A stretch of 46,252 bases of DNA, from contig JAEENW010000084.1 of the NCBI GenBank assembly GCA_016283945.1, positions 1-46,252 of the forward strand, given 5' to 3'. Every line of letters starts with the position of its first letter. Position 1 is the stretch's first letter. This stretch comes from Bacillota bacterium. Its GTDB lineage: Bacteria > Bacillota > Clostridia > Peptostreptococcales > Anaerovoracaceae. This document shows positions 3,762-24,648 of the stretch, piece by piece. The translations under genes were made by a program, and so were the position numbers. The notes beneath the pieces were generated by a model. It saw only the letters and a program-made list of their open reading frames with translations. It did no database searches and was not told the DNA's origin.

Positions 3762-4736
3762 ATGAAAGAAACATACAAAGGGCGCAGAGCGCTCATTAAA
3801 AAACTGGCCGCGGCCGCGCTGGCCCTCTGCCTGACGCTGGCATTGGCTGCGTGCGGGGAGAGCAAGCCTCAGGAACCGGCTCCTTCCGAGCCTCCCAAGG
3901 ACCCGGCGCCTGGCGAGATAAGGCAGGCGAGCCTCTCTCTCAGCAAGGAGGAGCTTCCGGTCATAGACGGAGCTACCGCCATGCTGCCTTACTATCAGGC
4001 GGCCGCGGCCAGGATACTCGGAATAAGCGTGGATGAGGCGGCGGCCTACGTGCTCTGCAGCAAGACCGACGGCGCCTACAACAGCCTCACGCAGAAGCGC
4101 TGCGACATGGTATTCTGCGCGCTTCCCTCCGAGCAGCAGATAAAGTGGGCGGCAGATCAGGGCGTCGAGTTCGAGAGCGTGGACATACTCAACTCGGGCT
4201 TCGTCTTCTTCGTGAACAAGGACAATCCCGTAGACGGTCTGACTTCGCAGCAGATCCACGACATCTACGCCGGCAAGATCACCAACTGGAAGGAGCTCGG
4301 CGGAAACGACGAGCCCATCGAGGCGTTCCAGCGCTCCGAGGGCTCCGGAAGCCAGACCGGCCTTTACCTGCACGTCATAAGCCCCGAGGAGCTCATGCCC
4401 GCTCCTACCGAGAAGATGATAGGCGCCATGGAGGGGATCATCGACGTGGTCGCGAACTTCGACTCCGGCAAGGGCGCCATAGGCTATTCGTATTACTATT
4501 ACGTGGTCAACATGCACTACGACGAGGACATCAAGATGATCGCCGTGGACGGGGTCATGCCGACCCCTGAGACCATAGGGCAGGGAAGCTACCCGTACAT
4601 CTCCAGGACCTGCGCAGTCTTCAGGAGCGACGAGCCCGAGGACAGCAACGTCCGGAAGATAGCGGAGTGGTGCCACGGCCCGGAGGGCTGCGCCCTCGCG
4701 GAGGAGCTTGGATATGTTCCCAACAGAGAAGACTAG
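3762..4736 (+). CDS. PstS-like (PBP_like_2) substrate-binding lipoprotein, orphan
   Basis: Signal peptide with lipobox LALAAC. Contains QRSEGSGSQTG and the GAIGYSYYYY block typical of phosphate-binding-protein-like domains. AAGGAG RBS upstream. No pstCAB genes nearby. Confidence 0.7.
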   Translation: MKETYKGRRALIKKLAAAALALCLTLALAACGESKPQEPAPSEPPKDPAPGEIRQASLSLSKEELPVIDGATAMLPYYQAAAARILGISVDEAAAYVLCSKTDGAYNSLTQKRCDMVFCALPSEQQIKWAADQGVEFESVDILNSGFVFFVNKDNPVDGLTSQQIHDIYAGKITNWKELGGNDEPIEAFQRSEGSGSQTGLYLHVISPEELMPAPTEKMIGAMEGIIDVVANFDSGKGAIGYSYYYYVVNMHYDEDIKMIAVDGVMPTPETIGQGSYPYISRTCAVFRSDEPEDSNVRKIAEWCHGPEGCALAEELGYVPNRED

Positions 4737-6333
4737 AGGAGCGGCCCGCCGGCTCGGCGCCAGGGCGGCCGCCGCGCTGCTCTCGCTCGCTCTCGCCGCC
4801 TGCTGCCTCAGCGGCTGCGGCGCGGGAGGCGCAGGACAGGCCGGCCCCGGACCGAAGGGCGCGAACAGCGGCGTCATAAGCGCCCGCGAGAGCTTCGAGC
4901 AGGGAGAGCAGCTCACGCACGTGTACAGCAACCCGCTCGAGACCGAGTTCGTTGACATCTCCATAGGCGGAAACATCACAGGCAACTACATAAAGCTTCA
5001 CGGCTTTGCCGATCCTGCCGTCGAGAAGAAGGTGAACGACCTCATATTCCGCGCCGCCATGGACCTGGCCGCCGATACCGAAACGCCTCCGTACATCGGA
5101 GCGGCAGTCGAGTTCAGGAACAAGGTCCCCACGGACCGCAGCGTCTACAGCCAGCTCGTGGGATCGTTCAACAACATCGCTTCCATATCCATGAACGTAT
5201 ACCAGCAGTTCAAGCCGGCCGACGGTTACGAGTCCGAATGGTGGAGCTCCTATTCCGCCGTAAAGACGCTGAACATAGACCTGAGGACCGGCGAGGAGAT
5301 AAAGCTCCGCGACCTCTTCAAGGAGGGCACGGACGGGATAGCCTTCCTCAACAGCTGCATGGAGCGCTACATAGCCGAGAACGACTGCTACGACGACACG
5401 ACCTGGACCTACATGAACGGCTTCTTTCTCAGGGACAGCTTCCGCGGAGTGGACGAGGACCAGCAGTTCGTGATCTCGAACTGGAACGGCTGCGTATCCC
5501 TCTACTTCGACTGGCGCGACCCCGAGGTCCAGACCGAGTTCTACCCGGTAAGCGTCAGGATCGACGACAACTCCCGCTTCGACTACGACAAGTTCCTCGA
5601 GGGCGGCCCCGTATCCGCCGGGAAGCCGCTCGTCCCGCGGCTGCTCGAGCAGGAGCTGCCCCTCAGCGAGCCCGAAGAGCTCCCGAGGGCCTACAGCTTC
5701 GCGGGAAGGAACATAGATTACCACGGAGAGTTCGCGGGCAGCAGCCTCCTGAGCGACGCGCAGAACAGGGCGCTCACCGAGAGGACCCCGGAGGAGACTG
5801 CGATGGCCGACGGCGCGATCAGGGATTACGACCGCTTCGCGAAGACCTACGGGATGCTCAACGCAAGGGGAAGCTTCTACGAGGAGGGCAGCGCGAGCGC
5901 CATCGGGCCCTTCAGGATCATCAGGCGCTACGTATCCTACTACGTCTACAGCGAGGGAGACAACTACGACAGCGCTTCGGATTACAGCGACAGAGTTATC
6001 GTCTTCAGGGACGGGAACGATGAGCCGCTCTCGATCGAAGATCTCTTCAAGCCCGGAGCTGACTGGAAGTCCGCCGTCAGGGCGGTCGCTCTCAGGAAGC
6101 TCACCGAGACCGACTACATAGGAGTCAGCGATCCCGAGGGCTACGTTGACGAGATGCTGGACAGGATAAGCGGGATCGATCCGGGCAGCGAGGGCGTGCA
6201 GCTCTACTTCAGGGATCACGGGGATATCGACAGCAGATACCTGTCGAACCCCGACTACGAATGGGCCGCGAGCAACGCCGTGGGCTATCTGGAGTACGCC
6301 GATCTCGGAGCCGATATCCTGAACATAATATAA
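4714..6333 (+). CDS. hypothetical lipoprotein (539 aa)
   Basis: Lipobox LSGC after a hydrophobic leader (AAALLSLALAACCLSGCGAGG). GGAGGAG lies 8 nt upstream of ATG 4714; the TTG at 4708 is also possible. Codon usage matches the neighbours. No domain recognised. Overlaps the preceding gene by 23 nt. Confidence 0.6.
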   Translation: MFPTEKTRGAARRLGARAAAALLSLALAACCLSGCGAGGAGQAGPGPKGANSGVISARESFEQGEQLTHVYSNPLETEFVDISIGGNITGNYIKLHGFADPAVEKKVNDLIFRAAMDLAADTETPPYIGAAVEFRNKVPTDRSVYSQLVGSFNNIASISMNVYQQFKPADGYESEWWSSYSAVKTLNIDLRTGEEIKLRDLFKEGTDGIAFLNSCMERYIAENDCYDDTTWTYMNGFFLRDSFRGVDEDQQFVISNWNGCVSLYFDWRDPEVQTEFYPVSVRIDDNSRFDYDKFLEGGPVSAGKPLVPRLLEQELPLSEPEELPRAYSFAGRNIDYHGEFAGSSLLSDAQNRALTERTPEETAMADGAIRDYDRFAKTYGMLNARGSFYEEGSASAIGPFRIIRRYVSYYVYSEGDNYDSASDYSDRVIVFRDGNDEPLSIEDLFKPGADWKSAVRAVALRKLTETDYIGVSDPEGYVDEMLDRISGIDPGSEGVQLYFRDHGDIDSRYLSNPDYEWAASNAVGYLEYADLGADILNII

Positions 6334-6369: not shown

Positions 6370-7341
6370 ATGAACTTCACATCCTTTGATTACTTCATCG
6401 AGGTCGAAAAGCACCGCAGCTTCTCAAAAGCCGCGGACGCTCTGCACGTCTCCCAGCAGGCCCTGAGCTCCCACATCTCTTCGCTGGAGAAGGAGCTGGG
6501 CTGCCTGCTCTTCGTGCGGCACATACCGCTCGAGCTCACCTACGCCGGCGAGCATTTCCTGAACTACGCTCACAGCTTCGTGAACGACTACACGAACATG
6601 ATCAGGGAGTTCCAGGACATCTCCGAGGAGCGCAAGGGAAGGCTCAAGATAGGTGTGACGCACACGAGGGGCAGGGCGATACTGCCCGACCTCATCACCA
6701 TGTTCCAGAAGGAATATCCCGGCTTCGAGGTGGAGGTCGTCGAGTCCACGAGCGAGTTCCTCGCGGACAAGCTGCTGTCCCACGAGATAGACGTCGCAAT
6801 AGGATACATAGACGATCAGGACGGCATAGACACGGAGCTCTTCTACGACGAGGAGATGCTGCTCATGATCCCAAGAAGGATGCTTCTGGAGCTCGCGGCC
6901 GAGCGCGCGGGCGAGGACGGGATCTACGAGTTCGACCCCTCGATACTCAACGACTGTCCGATGATGCTCGGAAGCCGCGACGACATGAGCGGCATACTGA
7001 TCAGGAAATACCTCAAGGACAACAGGCTCGATCCTCCCATCAGGGCGAGGGCTGAGAACATCGAGACCCTCATAATGCTCTGTGTAAAGGGCGTCGGAGC
7101 CTGCCTCTGCCCGGAGTCGCTCATCAGGTCGACTCTGACCAAGGAGCAGATCGAAGAGCTGTCGATAATAGCTCCCGACATCCACACTCCGGTCAAGTTC
7201 GCCACGAGGAAGGAAGGCTATCAATGGACCGCGATCGAGGAGTTCAAGAAGCTCGCCCACGATAACATCGAGGCGATCATGAACCTGAACGACCCGGTCA
7301 AGAGGAACAACCGGCTGAGCGTCGCAGCGCAGCAGAGATGA
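6370..7341 (+). CDS. LysR-family transcriptional regulator
   Basis: N-terminal wHTH FSKAADALHVSQQALSSHISSLEKELGCLLFVR followed by a LysR substrate-binding region. Length 323 aa. Confidence 0.9.
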   Translation: MNFTSFDYFIEVEKHRSFSKAADALHVSQQALSSHISSLEKELGCLLFVRHIPLELTYAGEHFLNYAHSFVNDYTNMIREFQDISEERKGRLKIGVTHTRGRAILPDLITMFQKEYPGFEVEVVESTSEFLADKLLSHEIDVAIGYIDDQDGIDTELFYDEEMLLMIPRRMLLELAAERAGEDGIYEFDPSILNDCPMMLGSRDDMSGILIRKYLKDNRLDPPIRARAENIETLIMLCVKGVGACLCPESLIRSTLTKEQIEELSIIAPDIHTPVKFATRKEGYQWTAIEEFKKLAHDNIEAIMNLNDPVKRNNRLSVAAQQR

Positions 7342-7895
7342 TGACAGACGACCAGCTGTATCAAAGCTATCTCGCGGGCGACGCGCCCGCGGGCGACGAG
7401 CTCATGCTCCGCAACAGCGACGCCCTGACGGCCTATCTGGCGGGCTTTCTTGAGCATGCGCAGGACGCGGAGGACCTGATGCTCGACTGCTTCACGGTGA
7501 TACTGGTCGACAAGCCCCGCATAGGGGAAGGGCACTTCCGCTCCTACCTTTTCAAGGTGGCGCGGAACAAGGCAAACAGGCTCTGGAGGATGAGGTACAG
7601 GCGCAGCGAGTTCAGCCTCGACGAGGGACTCATCGAGAGCATGGACGACGGGCTTCCTCCGGACGAGGAGCTCTGGAAGAAGGAGCGCGGCGCCATACTC
7701 AGGAGCTGCATCAACCGCATAGCCCCGCAGTACAGGGAGGCGCTGTGGCTCATATACGACATGGAGATGAGCTACGCGCAGGCCGCTGAGGTCATGTCCT
7801 GCGGGACGAAGAGGATAGAGGATCTGCTCAGAAACGGAAAGAAGAGACTGAGAGCCGAGCTCGAGAAAGAGGGTATAAGCAATGCGGACATCTGA
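7338..7895 (+). CDS. sigma-70 family, ECF-type sigma factor
   Basis: Region 2-like FRSYLFKVARNKANRLWR and region 4 PQYREALWLIYDMEMSYAQAAEVMSCGTKRIEDLLRNGKKRLRAEL. Length 185 aa. ATGA overlap with the LysR stop. Confidence 0.85.
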   Translation: MMTDDQLYQSYLAGDAPAGDELMLRNSDALTAYLAGFLEHAQDAEDLMLDCFTVILVDKPRIGEGHFRSYLFKVARNKANRLWRMRYRRSEFSLDEGLIESMDDGLPPDEELWKKERGAILRSCINRIAPQYREALWLIYDMEMSYAQAAEVMSCGTKRIEDLLRNGKKRLRAELEKEGISNADI

Positions 7896-8244
7896 AGAGA
7901 GAGTCAGAGAACTTCATATGAGGATGGACGCGAGAAGGAAGGCCAAAGCCTCCCGCAGGCTCAGCGCCTCGGTCCTCGCGGTCACGCTCGGCCTCGCCGC
8001 TTCCATCGCGGCGGCGATAAGGATATCGAATATGGCCTATGTTGAAGCAGCCGGCCTCGCGGGAAACGCCGAGGGAAGCATCTTCGCGGAGCGCGGCGCT
8101 CTCGGCGTCATAGTCGTCGCGGTGCTCGCTTTCTGCCTCGGCTCCGCGGTGACCATACTCTGCTACAGACTGCGGACGGAGCGCCGCGACATGCCGAAGA
8201 TGCCGGTACGCCCCGGGGAGGTCAGCGATGGTCTTCGTGAATGA
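7882..8244 (+). CDS. small two-TM membrane protein, putative non-canonical anti-sigma factor
   Basis: Overlaps the sigma gene by 14 nt. Has a basic N-terminal helix (EERVRELHMRMDARRKAKASRR), two predicted TM helices and a basic tail. No HxxxCxxC zinc anti-sigma motif. Paralogue of the product of 9727-10065. Confidence 0.55.
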   Translation: MRTSEERVRELHMRMDARRKAKASRRLSASVLAVTLGLAASIAAAIRISNMAYVEAAGLAGNAEGSIFAERGALGVIVVAVLAFCLGSAVTILCYRLRTERRDMPKMPVRPGEVSDGLRE

Positions 8245-8848
8245 GAACCTCATTCAGTCGGCCGTGCTGATAGCGTGTTCCCTGGTATCGATCAGCAAGG
8301 CAATAAAATACAAGAGCAGGACCTGGTCTCTCCTCAGCTTCTTCTACGGATGCTGGCTGATAGACGACGTCTACTGGATGCTGTACGCCCTGTTCTTTGA
8401 CGGAAAGACGCCGACGCTCAGCGTGCTTTCGGACCTGAACTGGTACGCCTCGTACGTATTCCTGTATTTTCTCATCAGGCAGGTAGCTCCTCCGTATACG
8501 CGCCGTGAGACGCGGGTCATTCCGTGGCTCGCCTTCGTCTTCACCTTCTCCATGGCGGCGTTCTACATGCAGTGGGGAGAGGTCTTAAGCAATCTGATCT
8601 ACGCCAATCTCATAGGGCTGCTCCTGTTTTCGGTCATAAGGAGGCTCATGGACCTCGACGATTACAGGGACATCCTGCTCCTCTGCGCGGTCAGCCTGTT
8701 CTTCGTCGCCTTCGAATACGGGCTCTGGACGGCTTCCTGCTTCTGGAGAGAGGACTCGCTCTTCAACCCGTACTACTGGTTCGACGCGCTCCTGACGCTG
8801 AGCTTTCCTTTCTTCATCGCGGCGACGGCAAAGGCGGTGAGATCATGA
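8228..8848 (+). CDS. polytopic (about 6 TM) membrane protein, unknown function
   Basis: GGGGAGG RBS 6 nt upstream of ATG. Translation is almost entirely hydrophobic helices rich in Trp, Tyr and Phe. Overlaps both neighbours (17 nt and 4 nt). Confidence 0.6.
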   Translation: MVFVNENLIQSAVLIACSLVSISKAIKYKSRTWSLLSFFYGCWLIDDVYWMLYALFFDGKTPTLSVLSDLNWYASYVFLYFLIRQVAPPYTRRETRVIPWLAFVFTFSMAAFYMQWGEVLSNLIYANLIGLLLFSVIRRLMDLDDYRDILLLCAVSLFFVAFEYGLWTASCFWREDSLFNPYYWFDALLTLSFPFFIAATAKAVRS

Positions 8849-9474
8849 GTTATATCGAGAACATATACGTCTGCCTGGCGGCTCCCATCCTCCTTGCTAT
8901 AATGCTGCTGCGAAGAGAGGCGAGGGGATCTCTGGCCTTCACGCTGATGGGGATGACCTCATGCCTGCTCTCCGCGTACGTGAGCTCCTTCGCCGCGGGA
9001 GCGGCAGGGCTGGGGCTCGCGGAGGCGTCCCTCGAGATCGCCCCGGTGGTCGAGGAAGTCATGAAGTCGCTTCCCATACTCTTTTACCTGCTCGTGTTCG
9101 CTCCGCGAAAGGGCGACGCGATAAGGGGGACCATCATGGTCTCGGTGGGCTTCGCCACCTTCGAGAACGTCTGCTTCCTCACCAGCTACGGCACTGAGGA
9201 CCTCCTGAGGCTCCTGATAAGGGGCTTCGGCACGGGGGCCATGCACGTCACCTGCGGAATGGTCGTGGCCATAGGCCTGTTCTTCCTCTGGGACAGAGCC
9301 TGGCTCAGGGTGGTCGGCGGATTCGCTCTGCTCTGCTTCGTCATAAGGTTCCACAGCATCTACAATCTGCTCGTGAACGGCTCAGGACCCGTGTTCTGGA
9401 TAGGCAGCGCCATACCGCTCACGTTCATACTGGTCTACATGATCGCGTTCCGGAGCAGCGTCAGGATATCCTGA
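8845..9474 (+). CDS. PrsW-family glutamic-type intramembrane protease
   Basis: Real start is ATG 8845 (MSYIENIY...), which overlaps the preceding stop as ATGA; the upstream part of the 8524 ORF-track entry runs through the previous gene in another frame. Carries the PrsW motif set APVVEEVMK (EExxK), GFATFEN (FxxxE), GAMHVTCG and FHSIYNLL (HxxxN) in a roughly 7-TM protein. Confidence 0.75.
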   Translation: MSYIENIYVCLAAPILLAIMLLRREARGSLAFTLMGMTSCLLSAYVSSFAAGAAGLGLAEASLEIAPVVEEVMKSLPILFYLLVFAPRKGDAIRGTIMVSVGFATFENVCFLTSYGTEDLLRLLIRGFGTGAMHVTCGMVVAIGLFFLWDRAWLRVVGGFALLCFVIRFHSIYNLLVNGSGPVFWIGSAIPLTFILVYMIAFRSSVRIS

Positions 9475-9497
9475 CAGCTCCCGGACCGATCGAGTTC

Positions 9498-9526
9498 AAA
9501 GCGCCCCGAAGGGGGCGCTTTTTTTA
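9498..9526 (+). terminator. rho-independent terminator ending the sigma/PrsW operon
   Basis: AAAGCGCCCC-GAAG-GGGGCGCTTT stem-loop followed by a T7 run. Confidence 0.85.
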
Positions 9527-9531
9527 TGCGT

Positions 9532-9591
9532 GAAAGGGGAGCCCGCTATTCCGCCGCGCGGGAAAGGGGAGCCCGCTCTTTCGCCGCCCGG
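9532..9591 (+). repeat. two tandem 30-bp direct repeats (27/30 identical), with a degenerate third unit to about 9621
   Basis: Unit 1 is GAAAGGGGAGCCCGCTATTCCGCCGCGCGG and unit 2 is GAAAGGGGAGCCCGCTCTTTCGCCGCCCGG. They sit between the terminator and the giant-gene operon. Confidence 0.9.
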
Positions 9592-9726
9592 AAAAAGGAG
9601 CGGGCGCTCCGCGGCGCAGAGGAGCGCGGCAAGAATTCAAAAAAGTATAAAAACCGCTTCGGGTATTTCCCGCCTGCAGGACACTTATGTGTTGAAAGAC
9701 TGTTTAGAAAGGAGCATACCGCCGTG

Positions 9727-10065
9727 ATGACAAAGGAAGAAAAGATCTCGGCTCTGCACCGGCGCATGAAGACGCGCGTCAAACGGCGCGAAAGGGCAAA
9801 GACAGCCGCTCTGGGCGCGTCCTGCGCCTGCATGACGCTGTGCCTCGCGGTCATGGTCTTCGGATGTGACCCCGCTCATACCGGCGGTCCTGCGGGGATG
9901 TTCAGCGGGGCGACGATGCTCTTCGAGCACGCGGGAGTATACGTACTGACCGCCATCTGCGCCTTCTTCGCAGGCACAGCGGTCACCCTGATCTGCATTC
10001 GAAATCAAAGAAAGCGTCCGGGAAACAGAGGCGCTGAAGTATCTAACAGGGAGGAAAAGCCATGA
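9727..10065 (+). CDS. small two-TM membrane protein, paralogue of the 7882-8244 product
   Basis: AAGGAG lies 11 nt upstream of ATG 9727; the 9526 start in the ORF track runs through the repeat region. Product MTKEEKISALHRRMKTRVKRRERAK..., with TM2 AFFAGTAVTLICIR versus AFCLGSAVTILCYR in the paralogue. Its stop overlaps the ATG of the 2625-aa gene (ATGA). Confidence 0.7.
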   Translation: MTKEEKISALHRRMKTRVKRRERAKTAALGASCACMTLCLAVMVFGCDPAHTGGPAGMFSGATMLFEHAGVYVLTAICAFFAGTAVTLICIRNQRKRPGNRGAEVSNREEKP

Positions 10066-13000
10066 AACTCAAGCGATTGCTGTCGGTCGTTCTGACGGTC
10101 TGCCTGATCATCTGCGCGGTCCCGATGAGCGCGATGCCCGTCTTCGCTGACGACGGTCCGGGAGGCTACGACGAAGATCCCGACCGGCCGCCCGAAACGA
10201 CGAACTATCCCGATCCCGAGTACTCGCTCTTCTGCAGGCCTGAGCTCGCGCTGTTCAACGCTCGGACCAGTGCCAAGGAGGACTATTTCCAGTCCGTCAT
10301 GAGGAGCAGCCACTACAACGCGGTAGCGGCGGGGTACTTCAAGGAGAGGGATTCGGGCAGCGTCCTCAAGTACGACACCGTGCTCAAGGGCTACGACGTC
10401 TATCTCTGGGATGACTTCCGCGACACCGAACTGGCCAGGCTCAGCGACAGCTACGGGCAGCTCAAGGTGGGGCTCGCGGCCACCCTGGACTGCTACGATC
10501 ACAAGCATACCTCCGGCACCCACAAATACGACGTGATCGGCTACAACAAGCTCGAGCTCACGCCTCTCACCGGCGCCATGGGATACGGCTCTATAATCTC
10601 GGCCAGCGGCTATTCCAAGACCGAGACGAGCGTCCGCAGGGGCAGCGCCGAGTTCAGCGACCTTCCCGGCGGAATGTACAGCGTGCCCGGAGACAGCGAC
10701 GCGCCCGGCCACTATCTGGGGCTCGAGTGCTACAGGGAAGCTATCTCCTGGCCGGGCGGGATCTGCGACTGCGGAGGCAAGGCCAAGGAATTCGCCGTCA
10801 CCTTCTGCGACGACAGCGCTCCCAGCCTCGCAGAGGTCAGCATCCTCAACGAGGCCGGCGATCCCTGCACCGATTTCGGAAAGGGCGATAAGATCGTCAT
10901 AAAGCTCAGATACGACGAGCCCGTGCGCTTCGCCGACGACAGGGCCGCGGGCAAGGGCAAGCTCTGCATAGGCCTCATGGTCGAGAACAAGGGGCAGGGG
11001 GACTGGCTTTACGCCCACCTCACGAGCCTCGAGAACGATACACTGACCTTCGAGTACATAGTCGATCCGCGCGACACGAAGCTCTATACCGTAATAGGGC
11101 TCGACTTCGCTTCCGCCGCCGATGACGGCTCCGCTCTCGTCCACAGCAGCGCGGACATAGCGCTCAGGACTATCGAGGAGGACGGATACGTCACCGTGAC
11201 CAAGCCGGGATCCGTCGAGAGCCCGGAGGGCTTCACCAAAGCGAGGAGCTACATCACAGACCTCGCGGGCAACCCCATCAGTAACGAGCAGCCCGTGAAG
11301 CGCTTCTACATCGACTGCGAATCTCCATACGCGGCTAAGGTCAGCTTCGACGCCGAGCTCAACAACGGCGACATCAAGGCGCTGCGCGGGGTTACGGAGC
11401 TCGATCCCAAGGATCCCAAATACGGAGATCCCAGCGACCTGTACCTCGGAGCAGGAGACCTGCTCGGCTTCAATCTCTATTTCAACGAGCAGGTCTTCTG
11501 GGAAGAGTGCGAGGGCTATTTCATCGACAACGCGTACGTGGTGACAAACCTCAGGTACGACAACGGCACATACCTCGAGCTCGATATCGCCGATTTCAGA
11601 TTCCTCGTGCAGGCGAGCAGCCTCGGAAAACAGTTCGGCAGGGGAAGGTCCAACGGCCTCGTGAGCAGGCTCTCGACCTCAAGGCTCCCGCTCCCCGCGG
11701 ACAGCAAGACCCACCTGACGGTAGACGACCCCAGCGGAAAGGACGAGATCAAGATCACCTCTGTCCATCTTGAGGGCAGCGGCATCGCCGACAGCTCGGG
11801 CAACCTGGCCTCGAGCGCCTTCAGCCCGGCTCAGGAGAGCTACAAGCTCGATACCTCCGCGCCGGTCTTCAGACTTGGAGACGCGGTGCAGACCGGAGGA
11901 GCCAACAGCACGTTCACCATACCCTTTATCATCACAGACAACGAGGGCGGTTCGGGAGTCGAGGAGCTTCCCGCGAGCCTCAAGCTCAGCGATCCCAACG
12001 GAAGCTCGGGGCGCATACAGTACGCCGTGAGCGCGTTCGCGGCGCCTCCGGCAAAGGCCTCCGACTGGCACGACGGGATCATGGGAAGCGATATCTCATT
12101 CGTCCAGACCTCCGACTGGCAGTATCTGCACGTTAAGCCGGATCCCGAGGCCCACTTCGACCTCGGCCCGGATCAGGAGCTCGGCATCAGCTTCAAGCTT
12201 CAGGATTACGCTGGAAACAGGGCTGACACCGCAGCGATCGGCGTTGAGGGAGTAGCCCTGGACAGCGCGCCTCCTACCGTCACCTCGGGTGACGTGAGCC
12301 GCAGCTACGACAACAGCGCGGACAGGGGCACCATAAGCGTGGTCCTCAAGGCCGCCGACGCGAGCGGCATCGATTCCATCAAATACCAGTGGCTCGAGCC
12401 GGGCTCCTCCGGGAGCGATATCGACGAGGACGCCTGGATCCAGGCCGTCAGGCAGGGCGGAAAATGGACCGCTTCCGGCACCGTCGATACGGGCGAGGTC
12501 TTCAGACAGGATCTGTGGGTCTACGCCGAGGACGGCGCGGGCAACGCGGGAGTAACCGGGCTCGGCTGCTTCAGCTACAGCCTCGAGAGCACCGATTACG
12601 CGCTCGACTGGTCGCCGGCCATCATGACGGCGGTCAAGGCAGGCGTGAGCTCGCTCGAAAACGGCGGAGCGCTGCTCTTCGACGTCAGGCTGAGCGGGGA
12701 CGGCGCCCATTACATCCACTTCGCGGACAGCGAGGAGTCCGACGTATTCGCCGGAAGCTGGCAGAGCGCGGAGTTCAGCGACGAGGACGGCTATACCTTC
12801 ACAGAGCTCGAAGACGCGGATGATTTCCTCGAAGACTATACGGGCAATGTGAACGTCACCGTATACTCCGGAAGCGCCGACATGTTCGAGGAGCTCGGCG
12901 AAGACGGTGAAGACGGCTTGACAGTCGCGGACAGCGCCGTGACGGAGGAGTTCACGCTGAGGCAGTCCCCGGCGGGAAACACCGCTGAAGACGTCTTCTC

Positions 13001-16000
13001 CGCGGACATCGAAGACATCTTCACCCCGGCAAGCGCCGCGGAGCTCGCGAGGCTGACTAACAAGGTCACGGAGCTCCCCTGGACCGTGGACAGCGAAGAG
13101 AGAAATCCAGCGAACACCGAAGGGCTAAGGGTTACCATAGACCTCGGCAGCGACAGGAACGGCTGGAACTACGAGGACATCGACTGGAAGAACTCGTTTA
13201 TCTCCGTCTACTCCGACAGCGATCCCTACGCTGCGGTCTCCCAATACGACTTGATCACGGACAGAGATTATTGCATGCTCTGCGCCACCGGCAGCGGACC
13301 GGTCCAGACCCTGACCCTGCCGGAAATTGATCTGGAGGGGGAAGGCGTCGATTACGCCAATCTGTTCCTTATACTGGCGAGACACAGCGCGCCAGACGCG
13401 CCCTACGCGATCGAGCTGTACGCGGGAGGCGAGGAGTTCGTCTTCGACGGTACCGAGCCGGGAAAGCTCGAGCTTCAGCATCTCGGCAGACAGTACGAAG
13501 ATGAAGAGGGACGCTACTACGATCTAGCCTTCGACCCCTCATCGACCATCTATATACCGACGGAAAGCACTCCGGTCGCGCTCTCCGTGGAAGCCCTCAG
13601 ACGCTGCACTTCCTACAATGGCGATGAACCGTATACCGAATACAAGTCCTTCGACTTATATGACAAGGACGTCGCCGGAGTCATAGGCGCGGTCGACATC
13701 GTCGCCTGGAACGCTGACGATCCCGACGAGAAGATCAGCCTCGCCTGCTCCTGGTTCGATTACAGCAACAACAACGGTCCCGGAGAGGACGACCCGAGAT
13801 ATATCTACATGTACGAGGACGGCAGCGAGGCCCTCAGGAGCGGAAAGCGCCTGCTCCGCTTCGGAGACGCGACCGACGCGTCCACGGGAACCATAGGCGT
13901 AGAGGCGGGGAAGGACAATACAGTAGCCCTGCAGATAGTCTGCGCCAACGGCAGCAGCTCCGAGATCTGCTACATCACCGTCCATCCGGTGAAGATCGGG
14001 CTGGAAGGGGAGGTCTCGATAGAGACACCCTACGATCTGGATCTCAAGGGAAACGCGAGCGTCGCGACCGTGGGGCCGGACGAAGCGTACATCGTGTTCA
14101 GTCCGGACAGCGGATATAACGCCGAGGGACTCGAGCTCTTCGCCGCCTGGGGATATCTCCGCACTGACGGCAGCTACGGGTTTGATTCGGGGATCCCCAT
14201 GACCATGCAGGGCGACGGCAGCTGGAGGGCGAAGGTCCCGAACGCGGATTTCTGGTCATGTCTGGACCATCCTGATGACTATATGACCTGCGGGATAATA
14301 AATCCCATGTACGACTCGGAGATTGGCCTTACCGGCTACTCGATCCCGATGGATTTCGAAGATGGCTACATCGATCTGACACATCACGGGAACCTGAGCG
14401 ATCCGCCTCCTTACTACGTCGTTTACGCTGCCGATCAGTACGGGAATAAGCATGCGATGGGCATCACCGACTGGGCTGTCGTTGCCGACAGGAGCGCGCC
14501 CCTGTTCACGAGCGATAACATGCGGCCGCTGGGCAGCATAGACACCGCTTCGGACGGCACGTACACCGCGGCCTTCGAGCTGGTCGACGACAGCTTCTAC
14601 TCCTGGGATTCCTACAGCGGAGAGATCATTTCAAGGCCTGTCACCCTCGAGTTCTTCTTCGACTCTAAATACGCCGAGGCAGCCGGGAAGCCGGCAGCGA
14701 GGCTGACCCTGAGCGGGATAGAGGACGGTTTCGTCTGGAAGGACGGAGACGGAAACGGCACGGGCATATACGAGGTGACCGCTGAGATGGTCCGCGAGGG
14801 CACGTTCAACAGCCACAATTACTACGGAGAAATAGCCACATACGCAGGCGGAGCGAAGTTCGCGCGCATGATCGTCACCGTTAAGGGCGCGGTAAGCCCC
14901 GAAGTGACGGCGCCCATGCCCATGACCCTGTTCGCGAAGGCGACGGACGCTCACGGCAATACCAACGGATGGACAATGCCGGACGCGGACTTCCAGTATT
15001 TTGACGATATCATGGACGAGGGAGACTACGCCAGATTTGACAATCCCGGCGTGGTACACGCGAGAAGCGTCTCCGGCGTCAAGCCGAAGGTGACCGGCAC
15101 CGTCTACAAGAGGACCGGTGAAGGTGACGACATGGCACTTTACGTCAACTTCAGTGCTCCCGTGCGTCCGCTCGAGAGCTGGATACGCTCGAGCGACGGA
15201 GAGCCGGAGGGCTACAGCACCGAGTGGCACGACGCCTTCCCGATCTGTAAGGACGGCAGCTGGAACATAAGCTACAGCGACCCCTTCGGCAATACCTACA
15301 CGGAGGAGCTGGCACTCGACGGCGTGTTCGGCGAGTACGGCTACGATCTTTCCTTCTCGACCCTCGACTGGGTCTCCAAGGAGACCGGAGTCACCGTTAC
15401 GGCGGTCGAGGACGACGACAGCGAGAGCCTGAGCGGAAGGGCGCAGTACAGCGAGGGCGGCGCCTTCGAGGATATGCCCGAGGCCACGGCGACCTTCACG
15501 CAGAACGTCCACGAGTATCAGATCGTGCGCAGCGCGAACGGCAAGAATGACATACTGCGCGTACACATAGGAAACATAGTCGACGGAGCTCCGGAGGAGA
15601 CCCTGTACTTCCGCATGGACGAGTTCAGCAGGACCTACAAAGAGGGTACGCAGCCCCGGGGCGAGACCTTCGGAAACGTCACCGTCTCGTACAGGACCGA
15701 CCGCGAGACCAGCCCCGTGGGCGCCACCGAGAAGACCTTCAGGGAGGGCGACGACGACAGCTTCAGCTTCAGATACTATGACGCCGCCACCGATAAGCAA
15801 TACACCATCAACGGAAGCCTCGGAAAGTACGGTATCAGCATTGGCCACTTCGTTCCCTACGAGGACGAGGAGGCCCCCTCGATAGACCTGGTCAGCGTCT
15901 GGAAGCAGAGGGCTGACGGCTTCATACAGGCGGACGCCTTCCCCGGCAGCGCGGACGACGATGCGGTAAAGGCCTCAATTGCCGCCTGCGGCACCGCCCA

Positions 16001-17939
16001 GAGCTACGACTTCGTGGTGAATGCGAGCGACTACTCCAGATGGAAGGTCATCGTCAAGAGCTCTCTGCCGGGCAGCGTGAGCTTCGAAAACACCGGGAAC
16101 GACGACATCGACGGAGTCGCGGTCAGCGGCAACAACGTCCTCGTTACGAATAAGGCCGCGGGCGACTTCTACATCGTGGTCGTCGACAGCGCCTCGGTAG
16201 ACACCGCGGCGGCGGCCGACAACTTCAGCGCGGTGAAGATCCCCTACGGGGCCTACCGCTTCGACAACGAGGCGCCGGAGATCGATACCGTGACCGCTTC
16301 CCTTGATCTCTACACCAAGGTCGTCTACATCGGCGTCAGCGACACCGACGACGCCGGCCACCAGACCGAAGGAGTCACCGTGACCGGAAAGGGCGTCATA
16401 CCGAACAGCGACGCGGGCTACGAGGCATATCCGTACAAGATGGTCTTCTTCGACAACGAGGAGGTCAGCGTGACGGCGACCGACGCGGCCGGCAACATAA
16501 AGGTCAAGAACATCGTCGTCACGGGCATAGATGTCGAGGCGCCCGAACTCACGGTGACCTGGTCGCCGTGCTTCACGGACGGAAACGGCCCGGATCAGTA
16601 CAGCCCGGCTGCGGGCCCGGTCAGGACCAACGTGACCGCTCACATCAGCAGCAGCAAGGATATCCTCAGGGTCAGGGCTAACGACGGCGACGAGCTCGTC
16701 TTCACGGACGGCAGGGCCGAGACGGCCTGGGGTTCGGTGGAATACACCTCGCAGATGGTGACCGTGCGCTTTACGACGGGCGCCGAGGTCTCCCTCGACG
16801 TCACCGTCACCGCCCCCAACAAAAAGAGCAATACCGCCACCGTCAGGCTCGCCGGCGGAGTCATAGACAAGGAGGCTCCGGCCGTGAGCGAGAGCGTGAC
16901 GCCGATGAAGCGCAGCGGGGCTGAGGCTCCGTACGCCGAGAGGCACAGGCTCAGCTTCAGCGAGGAGGTCTTCTGCATGGGCGAAGGCCCCGCGGGCAGG
17001 ATCTACAGCGCCGCGGAGCCCCTCGAGCTCGTGCTCTACAGGACCGACGAGGTCAGAGAGCTCGTGTTCAACGACAGGGCGGGCAACATCACCGTCTACA
17101 CGGTGAAGCCCTCCGCCGGCACAGTGCTGGACAACAGGGCTCCCGAGCTGGAGCTCGAGCTCGACGACGAGGCCAGCGCGACCAGCTCCGACGTCCGCGT
17201 GACTGTTATCTCCGACGAGTACGTCAGGCTCAGCTCCTCCGACAGCTCGGTCTCCTGCGGGACCGTGAGCGAGAGCGGGGACGGAAGCTGGAGCGGTACA
17301 GTCAGCGCCTCCGAGAACGGCACCTTCAGGATCAACGCGGCGGACAGGGCCGGAAACACGGCCTCCGCGGTGTTCACGGTCAACAACATAGACAAGACCC
17401 TGCCCCTGATGAGCTTTGACAAGTCGACCTACGGAGTGCTGCAGGACAGCGATTCGGCGTCTCTCAGGAACCTCCTGGACAGCGGAGTCACCGTCTGGGA
17501 CAACGTCGGAGTAAGGGAAGGATCCCTCAGCTACGACATGTCCGCGGTGGAGCTCGGCAAGCCCGGAGTCTACGAGGTCGTCTACAGCGTCGAGGACCTC
17601 GCGGGCAACACCGGCGAGAAGATCCGCTTCGTCAAGGTCATAGACAAGAACCTGCCCATGCTCACCGTGGACGGAGAGGTGACAGAGGAGGGCGGAACAT
17701 TCTCCCTCAGAGCCGGCACCCACATCCTCGGAGTCAGCGGTCTCAAGGACGGCAGCGAGCCCTACACCGTTCAGGTGGTAAAGGGCAAATACGCCAGAGG
17801 GCAGATGAAGTCGTTCCACGACAGCATCGAGATCGCGTCGGACGGCAGCATCGAGCTGACCCGCGGCGGCTTCTACACCGTACTGGTTACGACCCAGTCC
17901 AGGCAGACATATCGCACGCTTCTCTATGTCGAGCAGTAA
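10062..17939 (+). CDS. giant secreted protein (2625 aa), multi-module Ig-like architecture, no recognisable wall anchor
   Basis: Sec signal MKLKRLLSVVLTVCLIICAVPMSAMPVFA/DD. At least 9 D-x-x-A-P-x-(I/L/V) module boundaries (DTSAPVF, DSAPPTV, DRSAPLF, EEEAPSI, DNEAPEI, DVEAPEL, DKEAPAV, DNRAPEL and others). Acidic composition. GC3-biased codons throughout. No LPXTG, SLH or TM segment at the C-terminus. Confidence 0.85.
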   Translation: MKLKRLLSVVLTVCLIICAVPMSAMPVFADDGPGGYDEDPDRPPETTNYPDPEYSLFCRPELALFNARTSAKEDYFQSVMRSSHYNAVAAGYFKERDSGSVLKYDTVLKGYDVYLWDDFRDTELARLSDSYGQLKVGLAATLDCYDHKHTSGTHKYDVIGYNKLELTPLTGAMGYGSIISASGYSKTETSVRRGSAEFSDLPGGMYSVPGDSDAPGHYLGLECYREAISWPGGICDCGGKAKEFAVTFCDDSAPSLAEVSILNEAGDPCTDFGKGDKIVIKLRYDEPVRFADDRAAGKGKLCIGLMVENKGQGDWLYAHLTSLENDTLTFEYIVDPRDTKLYTVIGLDFASAADDGSALVHSSADIALRTIEEDGYVTVTKPGSVESPEGFTKARSYITDLAGNPISNEQPVKRFYIDCESPYAAKVSFDAELNNGDIKALRGVTELDPKDPKYGDPSDLYLGAGDLLGFNLYFNEQVFWEECEGYFIDNAYVVTNLRYDNGTYLELDIADFRFLVQASSLGKQFGRGRSNGLVSRLSTSRLPLPADSKTHLTVDDPSGKDEIKITSVHLEGSGIADSSGNLASSAFSPAQESYKLDTSAPVFRLGDAVQTGGANSTFTIPFIITDNEGGSGVEELPASLKLSDPNGSSGRIQYAVSAFAAPPAKASDWHDGIMGSDISFVQTSDWQYLHVKPDPEAHFDLGPDQELGISFKLQDYAGNRADTAAIGVEGVALDSAPPTVTSGDVSRSYDNSADRGTISVVLKAADASGIDSIKYQWLEPGSSGSDIDEDAWIQAVRQGGKWTASGTVDTGEVFRQDLWVYAEDGAGNAGVTGLGCFSYSLESTDYALDWSPAIMTAVKAGVSSLENGGALLFDVRLSGDGAHYIHFADSEESDVFAGSWQSAEFSDEDGYTFTELEDADDFLEDYTGNVNVTVYSGSADMFEELGEDGEDGLTVADSAVTEEFTLRQSPAGNTAEDVFSADIEDIFTPASAAELARLTNKVTELPWTVDSEERNPANTEGLRVTIDLGSDRNGWNYEDIDWKNSFISVYSDSDPYAAVSQYDLITDRDYCMLCATGSGPVQTLTLPEIDLEGEGVDYANLFLILARHSAPDAPYAIELYAGGEEFVFDGTEPGKLELQHLGRQYEDEEGRYYDLAFDPSSTIYIPTESTPVALSVEALRRCTSYNGDEPYTEYKSFDLYDKDVAGVIGAVDIVAWNADDPDEKISLACSWFDYSNNNGPGEDDPRYIYMYEDGSEALRSGKRLLRFGDATDASTGTIGVEAGKDNTVALQIVCANGSSSEICYITVHPVKIGLEGEVSIETPYDLDLKGNASVATVGPDEAYIVFSPDSGYNAEGLELFAAWGYLRTDGSYGFDSGIPMTMQGDGSWRAKVPNADFWSCLDHPDDYMTCGIINPMYDSEIGLTGYSIPMDFEDGYIDLTHHGNLSDPPPYYVVYAADQYGNKHAMGITDWAVVADRSAPLFTSDNMRPLGSIDTASDGTYTAAFELVDDSFYSWDSYSGEIISRPVTLEFFFDSKYAEAAGKPAARLTLSGIEDGFVWKDGDGNGTGIYEVTAEMVREGTFNSHNYYGEIATYAGGAKFARMIVTVKGAVSPEVTAPMPMTLFAKATDAHGNTNGWTMPDADFQYFDDIMDEGDYARFDNPGVVHARSVSGVKPKVTGTVYKRTGEGDDMALYVNFSAPVRPLESWIRSSDGEPEGYSTEWHDAFPICKDGSWNISYSDPFGNTYTEELALDGVFGEYGYDLSFSTLDWVSKETGVTVTAVEDDDSESLSGRAQYSEGGAFEDMPEATATFTQNVHEYQIVRSANGKNDILRVHIGNIVDGAPEETLYFRMDEFSRTYKEGTQPRGETFGNVTVSYRTDRETSPVGATEKTFREGDDDSFSFRYYDAATDKQYTINGSLGKYGISIGHFVPYEDEEAPSIDLVSVWKQRADGFIQADAFPGSADDDAVKASIAACGTAQSYDFVVNASDYSRWKVIVKSSLPGSVSFENTGNDDIDGVAVSGNNVLVTNKAAGDFYIVVVDSASVDTAAAADNFSAVKIPYGAYRFDNEAPEIDTVTASLDLYTKVVYIGVSDTDDAGHQTEGVTVTGKGVIPNSDAGYEAYPYKMVFFDNEEVSVTATDAAGNIKVKNIVVTGIDVEAPELTVTWSPCFTDGNGPDQYSPAAGPVRTNVTAHISSSKDILRVRANDGDELVFTDGRAETAWGSVEYTSQMVTVRFTTGAEVSLDVTVTAPNKKSNTATVRLAGGVIDKEAPAVSESVTPMKRSGAEAPYAERHRLSFSEEVFCMGEGPAGRIYSAAEPLELVLYRTDEVRELVFNDRAGNITVYTVKPSAGTVLDNRAPELELELDDEASATSSDVRVTVISDEYVRLSSSDSSVSCGTVSESGDGSWSGTVSASENGTFRINAADRAGNTASAVFTVNNIDKTLPLMSFDKSTYGVLQDSDSASLRNLLDSGVTVWDNVGVREGSLSYDMSAVELGKPGVYEVVYSVEDLAGNTGEKIRFVKVIDKNLPMLTVDGEVTEEGGTFSLRAGTHILGVSGLKDGSEPYTVQVVKGKYARGQMKSFHDSIEIASDGSIELTRGGFYTVLVTTQSRQTYRTLLYVEQ
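17391..17646 (+). other. DUF5011/HYR-like Ig domain near the C-terminus of the 2625-aa protein
   Basis: DKTLPLMSFDKSTYGVLQDSD...VWDNVGVREGSLSYDMSAVELGKPGVYEVVYSVEDLAGNTGEKIRFVKVID matches the D..G......V....G.Y.V.Y...D..GN pattern of that family. Confidence 0.55.
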
Positions 17940-17951
17940 GGAGGCAAGCAA

Positions 17952-20900
17952 ATGAGACTAAGCAAACGGATCCTTTCACTTTTCCTCTGTTTTGCCCTGA
18001 TCCTGCCGATGCTGCAGCTCCCGGCCTTCGCGGCCGAGGATGAGGCCGTCAGCATCGACAACGGATACATAGAGGCCAGCGTGTCGCTCAAGAACGGCGG
18101 TTTCCTCATCAAGACCGTCGAGGGCGACCTCCTGGAGAAGTCCGACAACAACAAGAAGCTGCTCTACCACAACGGGCACTACGACACCTCGTTCGTGTCC
18201 TTCAGGGTGGGCAGCGGCAAGGATGCCAGAGACTATCTCTTCGGAGGCAAGTACCCAGGCTCCAGCGGCGTCACCGTCGCGAAGACCGCCGGCGGCGAGA
18301 TCGCCGCGGTCTGGAGCGTGGACGGCATCACCTTCACCCAGCTCATATCGCTGGCTGAGGACAACTCCAACGAGCACGGAATGGTCTCGATAAGCCTGTC
18401 CGCCCGCAACGACAGCGGCAGGGCGGTCCCCGTCAAGGCGCGCGTCCTGCTGGACACCTGCCTGGGCGACAAGGACTACTCGTACTACCAGTTCACGGGC
18501 ATGGACTACACCCAGACCCTTGACCAGGAGCAGATCATCACCGATCCCGTGACCATCAGGAGCTTCTACTCGATAGACGACGTCGCCGATCCCAGGATCG
18601 CCGCCTACGTGGTCTCCGAGCCTGAGAAGGTCGCGATCGGCCACTGGAACGACCTGGCCTCGAGCCTCTTCGACTTCGCGCCGGACGAGGGGATGGGCTT
18701 CACCAACATATCCAACGAATTCCTCACCGCCGACAGCGCCTGCGCGATGTACTACGACCTCGGCACCGTCGCCAGCGGCGGAGCGGGCTCCGCGCTGCTG
18801 TTCTACGGCATCTACTCGAACAGCAAGGTCAAGCTGCAGAACAGCGTAGCGATCAACGCGGTCGCGCCCATGCGCCTGCAGCTCAACGGCGACAGGAGCG
18901 GCTACGTCAGGGAGAGCAGCGTCGGACAAGCCGACTTCTCCGTGACCGTCAGCGCCGAGAACTACAAGAGCGACAGCTCCCGCAAGCTCAGGGACGTCAA
19001 GCTCGCCGTGACCAGCACGAGCGGCCTGCGCCCCCTGAGCGACAGCGGGCAGCCCGTGAGCGGCCTCGACTTCAGCAGCGCCTCGCCGCTCACCGTTCCC
19101 TACGCCGAGATAGAGGAGGGCGAGACGGTCACCAAGACCGTGCACTTCCAGGCCAAGCCGCTCGAATCCGCGAGCTATGAGCGCATCACCATAGGCATGT
19201 ACGAGGGCGAGATCACAGGCGACAAGCTGCTCGGAGAGAAGGTCATATACCTGCTGCTGCCCGGGAATGACGGAAACATACCCAAGATCGGCTTCATCTC
19301 CATGAAGCCCGACACGGTCTACAACTCCGGCACCAGGCATCTCTACGCCGCCGTGAGCAACGACGTGCTGCTCGACGACTCTCTCTCCGCCGGCAACGCC
19401 GCCTTCAAGGCTTACAGCACCGACGGCAAGAAGTCCTGGAGCATACCCGCGTCGAACATAACCGTCAACGATGGCATCGCGGACATAGTGCTCGACGGCG
19501 AGCTGGAGCTGCCCGTGGGCAACTACTACCTGCAGCTCGAGTGGAGCGACGCCGCGGTTGACAAGGAGATCGTCGAGGCCAGGCATCAGAAGCAGACCGC
19601 CGAGTGCCTGAAGTTCGGCATCTCCGACAACCCGAAGTACAGGAACGACAGCTACGGAGTCCTCGCCGTGGTCAAGTACGGAAAGGGCACGGCGGACGTT
19701 CCATACTACTACCGCATAGAGAGGTTCGCCGACGAGGCGGGCTTCCAGAGCTTCTCCTCCGCGAAGGATCACGCCTGGAAGGAGATACTCATAGTCCTGC
19801 GCGGAGCCTTCACCGCCGACAACCGCTACCTCGTCAAGGAGAACGGCAAGACCACCGGAGGGCTCTACTACTCCGCGGTCAGCAAGAAGGTCGTGGATCC
19901 CAGGACCAGGAAGGAAAAGATCGACAACCCCGTCACGATCAACAACTGCGTCGACTTCGAGGGCGGGACCATCTCCATATACTACGAGAACTACGAGCAG
20001 GGCGTTTCCGGCGCTCTCGGCTCGCCTATACTGGTCGAGATCGACGGCGAGCTCTACACGAGCGGAGCCAGGACCTCGGTGTGGACAGGCAAGGCGGCTC
20101 TGACCAAGATAGAGCAGGGCAACGACTACTCGCTCATCCGCTACACGGCCAACGGAGTGCGCAAGCAGAGCAATTCAACGCCCATAACCCTGATCTGGCC
20201 GAACGTCTTCAGCGTGGCTCAGACCATCGCGGGCATGGTGTTCAAGCTGGCATACGGCCAGTTCGGAGTCATGGAGGTGGACGGCAAGGAGGCCGACAGG
20301 GTCATATCCTTCAGCGCCGGCCTGTCCCTGAGCTTCCTCAGCGTCGCAGATGACGACGATACCGACTACGGCACGGCGAGCTACTTCGGCCGCATGCAGG
20401 AGCTATGGAAGGACTGGCGGGGAGCGAGCATATACCAGTACGCTTACCACGGCAGCCGCTTCGAGAAGCTCACAGACCTGAGCATGAACGACCGCAACGC
20501 GGCGCCTGACACCCAGAAGGGCGCGCAGGCCTCGGTCATGATACAGGACATACTCTTCGGAAAGGAAGGACTGGTCGGGCTCAACTTCGAGGTCGACGTA
20601 ACCATACGCAACGTCATCGAGAACTTCGCCGCCATCGAGGGCAAACTCTCCATCAACACCATCAACGACTGGTCCTTCGGCCTCGCGGGCAACTGCAAGA
20701 TGACCGACAAGATCAAGATGGAGGCGAAGCTCAGCTTCAAGAGCAAGAACGACATACCCATCCCCGACGAGCTCTACTTCTACATAGGCGGGATCAAGCC
20801 GGGACTCAACGCCGACGGCTGCGGCGTCATCTGGATAACCGGAGCCGGCGGAGGCTTCTCCAACCTCTACGACACGATATTCTGCACGAGCGGGCTTCCG

Positions 20901-24569: not shown

Positions 24570-24648
24570 TCGGGATCCGCTTATAAACGGGACACGAGCT
24601 GAAAGGCATCCTCCGTGACATACTGCCTGCGCTGATCGGGGATACAGG

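Follow-up and report, generated by a model that had tools for sequence, protein, structure and literature searches.

In contig JAEENW010000084.1 of a Bacillota bacterium of the Anaerovoracaceae (assembly GCA_016283945.1; the window is the whole 46-kb stretch of DNA that was analyzed), two genes for small membrane proteins, here called copy A and copy B, flank a short regulatory gene group. Copy A follows a gene for an extracytoplasmic function (ECF) sigma factor, and copy B precedes a gene for a giant secreted protein. We found that both belong to a widespread, unnamed six-gene unit of gut and rumen Clostridia, in which genes for a sigma factor, an A-type protein, a polytopic membrane protein of about seven predicted helices, a PrsW-family protease, a B-type protein, and a very large product with a signal peptide follow one another. 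We regard it as practically certain that this cassette, and the two orthologous groups into which its small membrane proteins fall, are real. The features of the window on which the analysis bears are as follows; coordinates are window positions, and all cassette and cargo genes lie on the + strand.

6370-7341, +, LysR-family regulator (Pfam HTH_1 and LysR_substrate)
7338-7895, +, ECF-type sigma factor of 185 aa with sigma2 and sigma4 domains only (Pfam and NCBIfam scores)
7882-8244, +, copy A, 120 aa, two-transmembrane (two-TM) hairpin, putative membrane anti-sigma factor (open reading frame [ORF] map, BLASTP, clade)
8228-8848, +, polytopic membrane protein of 206 aa with about 7 predicted helices, from an unannotated family (conserved cassette member)
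8845-9474, +, PrsW-family intramembrane protease, 209 aa (Pfam PF13367)
9498-9527, +, intrinsic terminator (10-bp stem with 7 G-C pairs, T-run)
9650-9711, +, bipartite promoter-like element, presumed target of the cassette sigma factor (conserved upstream of B)
9727-10065, +, copy B, 112 aa, two-TM hairpin, first gene of the cargo operon (homology, clade, dN/dS, AlphaFold2 model)
10062-17939, +, cargo 1, secreted giant protein of 2625 aa (Sec-type signal peptide, weak Ig-like domain match)
17952-24569, +, cargo 2, surface protein of 2205 aa (InlB B-repeat and three SLH cell-wall anchor domains)
24649-26211, +, SLH-domain S8 subtilase, whose gene may close the cargo operon (domain matches)

Copies A and B in a conserved cassette

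An earlier note on this DNA had described the products of A and B as homologous two-TM proteins without the HxxxCxxC motif of anti-sigma factors, A overlapping the sigma gene by 14 nt and B joined to the giant gene by an ATGA overlap in which the B stop codon lies on the giant-ORF ATG. These points held. BLASTP aligned the two products over nearly their full length (E=2e-9, 31% identity), one family hidden Markov model (HMM) matched both ORFs (1.5e-35 and 3.8e-36), the coordinates confirmed both overlaps, and HxxxCxxC was not found in either sequence. The same note had called the second TM helix (TM2) nearly identical in the two, which was an overstatement, as 8 of 14 residues agree; TM2 is nonetheless, with the N-terminal helix, one of the two segments that both subfamilies conserve. 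Searched as a DNA pattern, the N-terminal motif T.EE[RK][IV]..LH.RM matched the window exactly twice, with 0 matches expected, and both matches fall at the starts of A and B. The two-TM description was borne out by an AlphaFold2 model of B (112-sequence alignment, mean predicted local distance difference test [pLDDT] score 66), in which the N-terminal helix runs continuously into TM1 (residues 3-46), and a disordered loop with a short helix after it leads to TM2 (70-96) and a charged tail. Since clusters of Lys and Arg flank both TM helices, the positive-inside rule indicates that both termini should be cytoplasmic, with an outer loop of ~25 residues.

Purifying selection acts on the two small ORFs (dN/dS 0.25-0.31 against orthologues; 0.26 for B), which argues that both genes are translated and constrained. 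Together with the conserved motifs, this selection rules out B as a mere leader ORF. Neither A nor B matched zf-HC2 or any other Pfam or NCBIfam model, and no PHROGs family was matched; PADLOC and PHROGs gave no link to defense or phage functions. Sequence and fold searches of B against the PDB returned only noise, without similarity to known anti-sigma structures. Word-indexed protein searches with A or B alone recovered just 2 to 4 relatives, and a profile search was required. A profile made from A, B, and the five first matches recovered 1558 representative proteins (one per 50%-identity cluster) with a threshold of E<=1e-3, or 470 with E<=1e-10; almost all have a length of 100-130 aa. A second family search gave 268 proteins at E<=1e-5; none of the best 120 of these carries a Pfam domain, and their sole name is "hypothetical protein." The A/B family and the family of the 7-helix protein are both unannotated, with no Pfam or NCBIfam model and no name in the source records.

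The distribution of the family was surveyed in one genome per GTDB species with a hand-made degenerate DNA motif for the N terminus, a search that is blind to neighboring genes. It returned 47 loci, 32 of which contain members of the A/B family; the other 15 contain none, and most of these are from unrelated phyla and look like chance matches. Both copies are present in 17 loci, on the same strand and typically 1.7-1.9 kb apart, as in the window. When the loci were annotated by mapping ORFs with the family HMM and the window's own proteins, the order sigma factor, A-type protein, 7-helix protein, PrsW, B-type protein, and very large ORF with a signal peptide recurred, and ~30 loci share it. 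Five additional B-type or divergent proteins, chosen without regard to gene neighborhood (three for long contigs, two for sequence divergence) and with independent gene calls, all lie within the same six-gene arrangement (loci L053, L055, L056, L058, and L060 in our numbering). The metagenome-assembled genomes (MAGs) that harbor the cassette, mostly from rumen and gut, are labeled Lachnospiraceae, Blautia, Butyrivibrio, Anaerobutyricum, Solobacterium, Eubacteriaceae, Mageeibacillus, and "Clostridiales."

Without exception, the A-type copies found sit behind a cognate sigma gene, and nearly all B-type copies with enough flanking sequence lie just downstream of a unit of sigma, A, 7-helix protein, and PrsW genes. 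The 14-nt overlap between the sigma gene and A recurs in most related loci; it is 35 nt in a few, and L050 has a 20-nt gap instead. The classic anti-sigma position of A, the link of B to the gene of the giant protein, and the membership of PrsW in the same system are all as the earlier note had proposed, and the situation that would have spoken against it, relatives never adjacent to sigma genes, was not encountered. Its view of the paralogue pair, split between regulator and cargo, as an unusual wiring gave way to that of a conserved cassette. Some loci depart from the full arrangement: in L015 the sigma, A, B, and cargo genes stand without those for the 7-helix protein and PrsW, A is truncated in L029, an additional cargo gene separates PrsW from B in L030, and in L034 and L052 sigma and A occur with no B nearby. 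L051 likewise has sigma and A without B, but its contig stops ~650 nt past PrsW, and in L027 and L048 a B copy stands without a sigma gene in reach. Literature searches for the cassette found no paper describing it, and the main text of the ECF classification paper has no relevant group.

A neighbor-joining tree of 58 copies separated 27 sigma-adjacent (A) and 31 cargo-adjacent (B) proteins into two pure clades. Members of either clade are on average 46% identical to one another, against 28% across the clades, and A and B from the same locus are likewise only 28% identical. The duplication is old by these comparisons, the copies being anciently diverged paralogues. Conserved in both clades are the N-terminal helix, M.T.EERV..LH.RM followed by Arg/Lys, and TM2, GY...A..AF..G...T....R, whereas the outer loop is clade specific (ASIFA.H..LGY in A; G..H.GG.AG.YSGA.MLFE.AGGYVL in B), as are the tails. 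The shared helix and TM2, set against the differing loops, suggest that A and B probably share one cytoplasmic or intramembrane partner and present different extracellular faces. Most A-type proteins end in an acidic/basic motif, ..E.K.DDR[KND][LH] (e.g., L010 2350-2688 and L034 3938-4276), which might mark them for degradation or provide a second point of contact; the window's A lacks it and ends in PGEVSDGLRE.

Sigma factor, protease, and promoter-like element

The sigma factor scores 29.7 bits for Sigma70_r2 (cutoff 24), 34.2 bits for Sigma70_r4_2 (cutoff 25.7), and 62.3 bits for the sigma70-ECF model TIGR02937 (cutoff 42.9). With sigma2 and sigma4 only, no sigma3 or sigma1.1, and a length of 185 aa, it has the makeup of an ECF (group 4) sigma factor. 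It could be assigned to no named ECF group: all NCBIfam equivalog and subfamily models scored far below their cutoffs (best PRK05602, 81.6 versus 208 bits), and the nearest solved structures, with CnrH among the closest, reach only E=5e-6. Sigma orthologues of the cassette share a mean identity of 66%. In the window the sigma gene is also joined to the LysR gene through an ATGA overlap, the LysR stop lying on the sigma start; a phmmer search with the LysR protein found no counterpart in any of the related loci, and this coupling is specific to the window. The LysR fusion may give the cassette of this organism a second, small-molecule-dependent input.

The remaining genes of this operon are packed as tightly. 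A and the gene for the 206-aa protein overlap by 17 nt, and the latter meets PrsW, whose ATG is at 8845, in another ATGA overlap. The 206-aa protein is 40-53% identical across 19 loci; a single-sequence AlphaFold2 model of low confidence (pLDDT 49) has 7 helices, no credible match was obtained in Pfam, NCBIfam, or the PDB, and hhalign found it unrelated to PrsW. Our suggestion that it serves as a sensor or adaptor is a guess. It carries invariant polar residues within its helices (N7, Q10, D186, and an NPYYW.D motif).

PrsW matches PF13367 with 43.8 bits (cutoff 23.5) over profile positions 17-191 of 196 and is the best conserved protein of the cassette (62-68% identity). Its catalytic motifs are invariant in 17 cassette copies: E69, E70, and K73 (EExxK), F102-E106 (FATFEN), H133, and H169-N173 (HxxxN). 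It is not the Bacillus subtilis orthologue, scoring 24.9 bits against a cutoff of 225 for the NCBIfam equivalog NF033739. By its sequence, the cassette PrsW is a family member of a distinct subgroup and is catalytically intact.

About 200 nt of noncoding DNA separate the terminator behind PrsW from B, and equivalent hairpins with a T-run follow PrsW in related loci. Alignment of the DNA upstream of B across loci revealed a conserved motif with the consensus AAAAC(A/C)GGTT(A/C)GG.GTTTT ... TTTC.GACAC.TATA..GTGAA(A/G), whose core boxes are GGTTAGG/GCTTCGGG and GACACnTAT at a distance of 15-16 nt, the first box conforming to TT[AC]G[GT]N. The site of the window consists of a -35-like GCTTCGGG at 9656-9663, 16 nt, and a -10-like GACACTTAT at 9680-9688, followed by GTTGAAAG. 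In ~27 loci the distance from GACAC to the start codon of B is fixed at 44-48 nt. A two-block weight matrix found exactly one site per locus, except in L030, which has two (before the extra cargo gene and before B); the 46-kb window contains the single site at 9650-9711. No site lies upstream of any sigma gene, which was checked as a test for autoregulation, and shuffled sequence gave 0 matches. The matrix was trained on these same sites, so its scores are inflated, but the exclusivity and the fixed geometry across divergent genomes are not. Judged from its sequence, the motif is a promoter-like element of a type other than that of sigma-A.

Ahead of sigma, several loci instead have strong promoters of the sigma-A type, in L009 and L051 a TTGACA-17-TATAAT without mismatch and in L015 and L055 one that agrees at 11 of 12 positions. 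Operon 1, which begins with sigma, is thus probably driven by a housekeeping promoter and not autoregulated. A conserved cognate promoter fits the highly conserved cassette sigmas, and from their co-occurrence the operon of B and cargo would be the one local target of the cassette sigma factor.

B is preceded by a ribosome-binding site, AGAAAGGAG, at 9706-9714, and its true start may be the GTG at 9724 instead of the ATG at 9727. A public gene call that extends B to 179 aa from 9526 (P0001) is an over-extension and an annotation artifact, because it starts in the T-run of the terminator, spans repeats and the promoter-like motif, and disagrees with the homologues, all of which start at M(M/R)T.EER. 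An RNA element in the intergenic region is likewise unsupported: Rfam gave there only a subthreshold match (9462-9527, E=0.022, 27.9 bits against a gathering cutoff of 55) that overlaps the terminator. At 9528-9610 the window has a 30-nt tandem direct repeat, GCG[T/G]GAAAGGGGAGCCCGCT.TT.CGCCGC, in two copies that are 90% identical, and a partial inverted copy at 9595-9610, between the terminator and the promoter-like motif. This repeat, to which the LysR regulator could bind, is not present in the closest related locus, L055, where the spacer measures ~60 nt.

A proposed gate and a proposed feedback regulator

Most genes behind B encode huge surface proteins of mutually unrelated architectures, with InlB B-repeats, Flg_new, Ig, FG-GAP, choline-binding, SLH, and LRR domains, and all of these giants carry ordinary Sec signal peptides. 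In most loci the gene next to B encodes a secreted protein of 850 to >2500 aa and overlaps B by 4 or 17 nt. In the window, cargo 2 starts 13 nt past the end of cargo 1, a terminator search found no terminator-like site on the + strand between them, and the two probably share one operon. L055 has an orthologous 2597-aa gene at the position of cargo 1. Farther on in that locus (12788-14984), Flg_new_2, SLH, and Peptidase_S8 domains are combined in one 2463-aa gene, while the window has two separate genes (17952-26211), pointing to gene fission or fusion, or to a frameshift in one of the two.

The coupling of B to such proteins could mean that B handles cargo, being made by translational coupling with a long Sec substrate that it targets, holds at the translocon, or releases, with A as a derived anti-sigma copy. 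The recurrent 4- or 17-nt overlaps and the classical signal peptides on all overlapped cargo proteins favor this explanation. B and the motif, however, also stand before a gene for a cytoplasmic AMP-binding enzyme in L006 and before one for a polytopic Bac_transf sugar transferase in L021. In L027 (2588-7998, in a MAG labeled Coriobacteriales, with no sigma gene within 2.6 kb), three tandem paralogues of a flavoprotein with a twin-arginine translocation (Tat) signal begin 660 nt beyond B. In L048 no cargo gene follows B at all, and in L030 (1024-7876) one of the motifs directly precedes the gene of a 1310-aa choline-binding protein without B, the other preceding B and a second cargo gene. The outer loop of B is conserved irrespective of the type of cargo, although the cargos are mutually unrelated, and B shares its cytoplasmic helix with A. 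Because B is kept before such varied genes with a conserved loop, B and its promoter look like a regulatory unit, not a cargo-specific helper. The proposal of a chaperone-like partner for the giant protein is weakened by the same loci, and a cargo-handling role for B seems to us unlikely.

We propose instead that A is a gate, a minimal anti-sigma factor opened by PrsW, and that B is a feedback regulator, probably a negative one; on this mechanism as a whole our judgment is evenly balanced. Operon 1 would supply sigma, A, the 7-helix protein as a possible sensor or adaptor, and PrsW, in the window fused also to the LysR gene. The N-terminal cytoplasmic helix of A, ~25 residues long (MRTSEERVxELHxRM), would hold sigma at the membrane. 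Upon an envelope signal, PrsW would cut A in its short outer loop, and an unlinked site-2 protease and cytoplasmic proteases would complete the breakdown of A and release sigma. The released sigma would direct transcription of operon 2, encoding B and then the giant surface proteins, from the one conserved promoter at 9656-9688. Given that B has the same N-terminal helix and TM2 as A and a different outer loop, it is proposed to bind the partner of A; the shared partner would be sigma, since sigma is the sole cytoplasmic protein of the cassette. Rising with the cargo, B would feed back on sigma, most likely by re-sequestering it, and so limit or pulse the output of very costly proteins. The strong terminator before B and B's own conserved promoter-like element suggest a feedback regulator made from a sigma-dependent transcript, and cleavage of A by PrsW is indirectly in line with the loops, which share ASIF in A-type proteins and YSGxxMLFE in B-type proteins. 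We infer the binding of sigma by A and B, the cleavage by PrsW, the dependence of the motif on sigma, and the sign of the feedback from sequence.

Several observations weigh against this proposal. Contact of A and B with sigma is proposed from sequence and gene context, and their cytoplasmic part is shorter than anti-sigma domains usually are and has no match among the known anti-sigma families. The common ECF promoter pattern is GGAAC...CGTC; the motif before B is unlike it, and its dependence on sigma is read from co-occurrence. L015, L029, and L052 lack both PrsW and the 7-helix protein, so cleavage by PrsW cannot be obligatory everywhere. The near-universal overlap of B with a giant secreted protein is compatible with a role related to the cargo. 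Finally, efficient re-sequestering by B would hardly let the system switch on, and the extra assumptions of a lower affinity of B, or of its degradation as well, are therefore needed.

Feedback of the opposite sign was also considered. B could be a decoy that competes with A for PrsW or the 7-helix protein, or could pair with A and displace sigma, so that expression locks on. The shared N-terminal helix and TM2 could equally well mediate pairing of A with B or recognition of a common membrane partner, and as the sigma operon is apparently not autoregulated, another amplifying step would be useful. A decoy for PrsW, on the other hand, would slow the cleavage of A and so amount to negative feedback again, and our computations do not separate the two signs. 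We consider a self-locking switch of this kind quite improbable.

The protease could have another substrate. PrsW-type peptidases fused to polymorphic toxins have been proposed to be releasing peptidases for large secreted toxins (PMC3482391), and by analogy PrsW and the 7-helix protein might have the cargo or B, and not A, as their target and process or release surface proteins; the position of PrsW as the best conserved cassette protein could be read in this sense. The cassette PrsW, however, is a stand-alone protein of 209 aa encoded in the sigma operon, neither fused to nor cotranscribed with cargo, and the cargos carry ordinary Sec signal peptides and are diverse in sequence. The experimentally established stand-alone PrsW, named as such in the same paper, cleaves an anti-sigma factor (PMC3482391). 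With its stand-alone gene in the sigma operon, cleavage of an anti-sigma factor fits better than cleavage of cargo, which we think very unlikely.

The architecture of A and B allows one more comparison. A class II holin typically crosses the membrane with two helices, keeps both of its termini in the cytoplasm, and carries a charged tail at the C terminus. A and B share this topology and adjoin giant exported proteins, so that they could be holin-like export or lysis proteins after the model of the clostridial toxin locus. PHROGs, which is rich in holin families, nevertheless gave no match for either, the Sec signal peptides of the cargo make a holin unneeded, and neither the conserved N-terminal helix motif nor the strict coupling of A to sigma is a holin feature. 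We find this idea hardly credible.

The proposed gate with feedback resembles several known systems in part. Its logic is like that of sigmaW/RsiW/PrsW of B. subtilis and of CsfT-RsiT with PrsW in Clostridioides difficile, in which an ECF sigma gene is likewise followed by a membrane-protein gene. It also shares with them a PrsW-family protease with intact motifs, whose presumed site-1 cut outside the membrane frees sigma. RsiW, however, is a single-pass protein with a zinc-binding HxxxCxxC motif, a cytoplasmic domain of ~85 aa, and a large outer domain, whereas A and B form two-TM hairpins, have a cytoplasmic helix of ~25 aa, and lack the zinc motif. The cassette also differs in that PrsW and an extra 7-helix protein are encoded in the sigma operon, that this operon is seemingly not autoregulated, and that a paralogue of the presumed anti-sigma factor heads the target operon. 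In B. subtilis sigmaM/YhdL/YhdK the sigma operon likewise encodes an extra small multipass membrane protein beside the anti-sigma factor, but YhdL is a conventional anti-sigma factor, and there is no PrsW, target-operon paralogue, or dedicated giant cargo. A precedent for a small membrane protein that blocks an ECF sigma factor with no more than a very short cytoplasmic stretch is CnrH/CnrY, a class II minimal anti-sigma system; CnrY, in contrast, is single pass, works with the periplasmic sensor CnrX, and has no sequence similarity to A or B.

The production of B has its counterpart in FlgM/sigma28, where an anti-sigma factor is made from a promoter of its own sigma factor and negative feedback is tied to the export of a large surface structure. 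FlgM, by contrast, is soluble, secreted, and unrelated, and its system has no paralogue pair, protease, or membrane anchoring. The C. difficile toxin locus similarly combines its own small sigma factor (TcdR) with small membrane proteins, the holin-like TcdE and the membrane anti-sigma factor TcdC, and with giant toxins of >2000 aa, but these toxins have no signal peptides, TcdE is a phage-type holin, and its proteins are unrelated to A, B, the 7-helix protein, and PrsW.

A bolder version of the proposal would make A and B a new minimal class of anti-sigma factors, a helix of ~25 residues on a two-TM hairpin, with A as the signal-opened gate and B as a sensor of secretion load. B would be made one for one with the giant Sec substrates, its stability, set through PrsW and the 7-helix protein, would report export success or surface coverage, and sigma activity would track secretion. 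We hold this version to be rather improbable; if true, thousands of gut and rumen Firmicutes would control adhesin-like giants through a membrane-embedded, Gram-positive counterpart of the FlgM checkpoint.

Neighboring genes and significance of the cassette

Two further genes of the window deserve mention. Just upstream of the LysR gene, 4708-6333 encodes a putative lipoprotein of 541 aa with a signal peptide, a Cys-rich lipobox region, and a weak DUF3298 match. On the - strand, a gene of the phage integrase family (31804-32973) lies between a MatE transporter gene and mutL/mutS and may belong to an integrated element or its remnant.

Giant surface proteins shape the attachment of gut and rumen Clostridia to fiber, to mucus, and to each other, and they are very costly to make. 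The cassette offers a compact, recurrent, and testable control unit of one sigma factor, one motif, one protease, and two small membrane proteins, with a range that takes in Lachnospiraceae, Erysipelotrichaceae, Eubacteriaceae, and other uncultured Clostridia. Two so far unannotated protein families come with it, that of the A/B hairpins (>1500 clusters at 50% identity) and that of the 7-helix partner. The pair of sigma factor and promoter could be used as an orthogonal expression switch for Clostridia. For the bacteria themselves, the cassette predicts a very short new anti-sigma element and a feedback that would act through a diverged paralogue in place of autoregulation.

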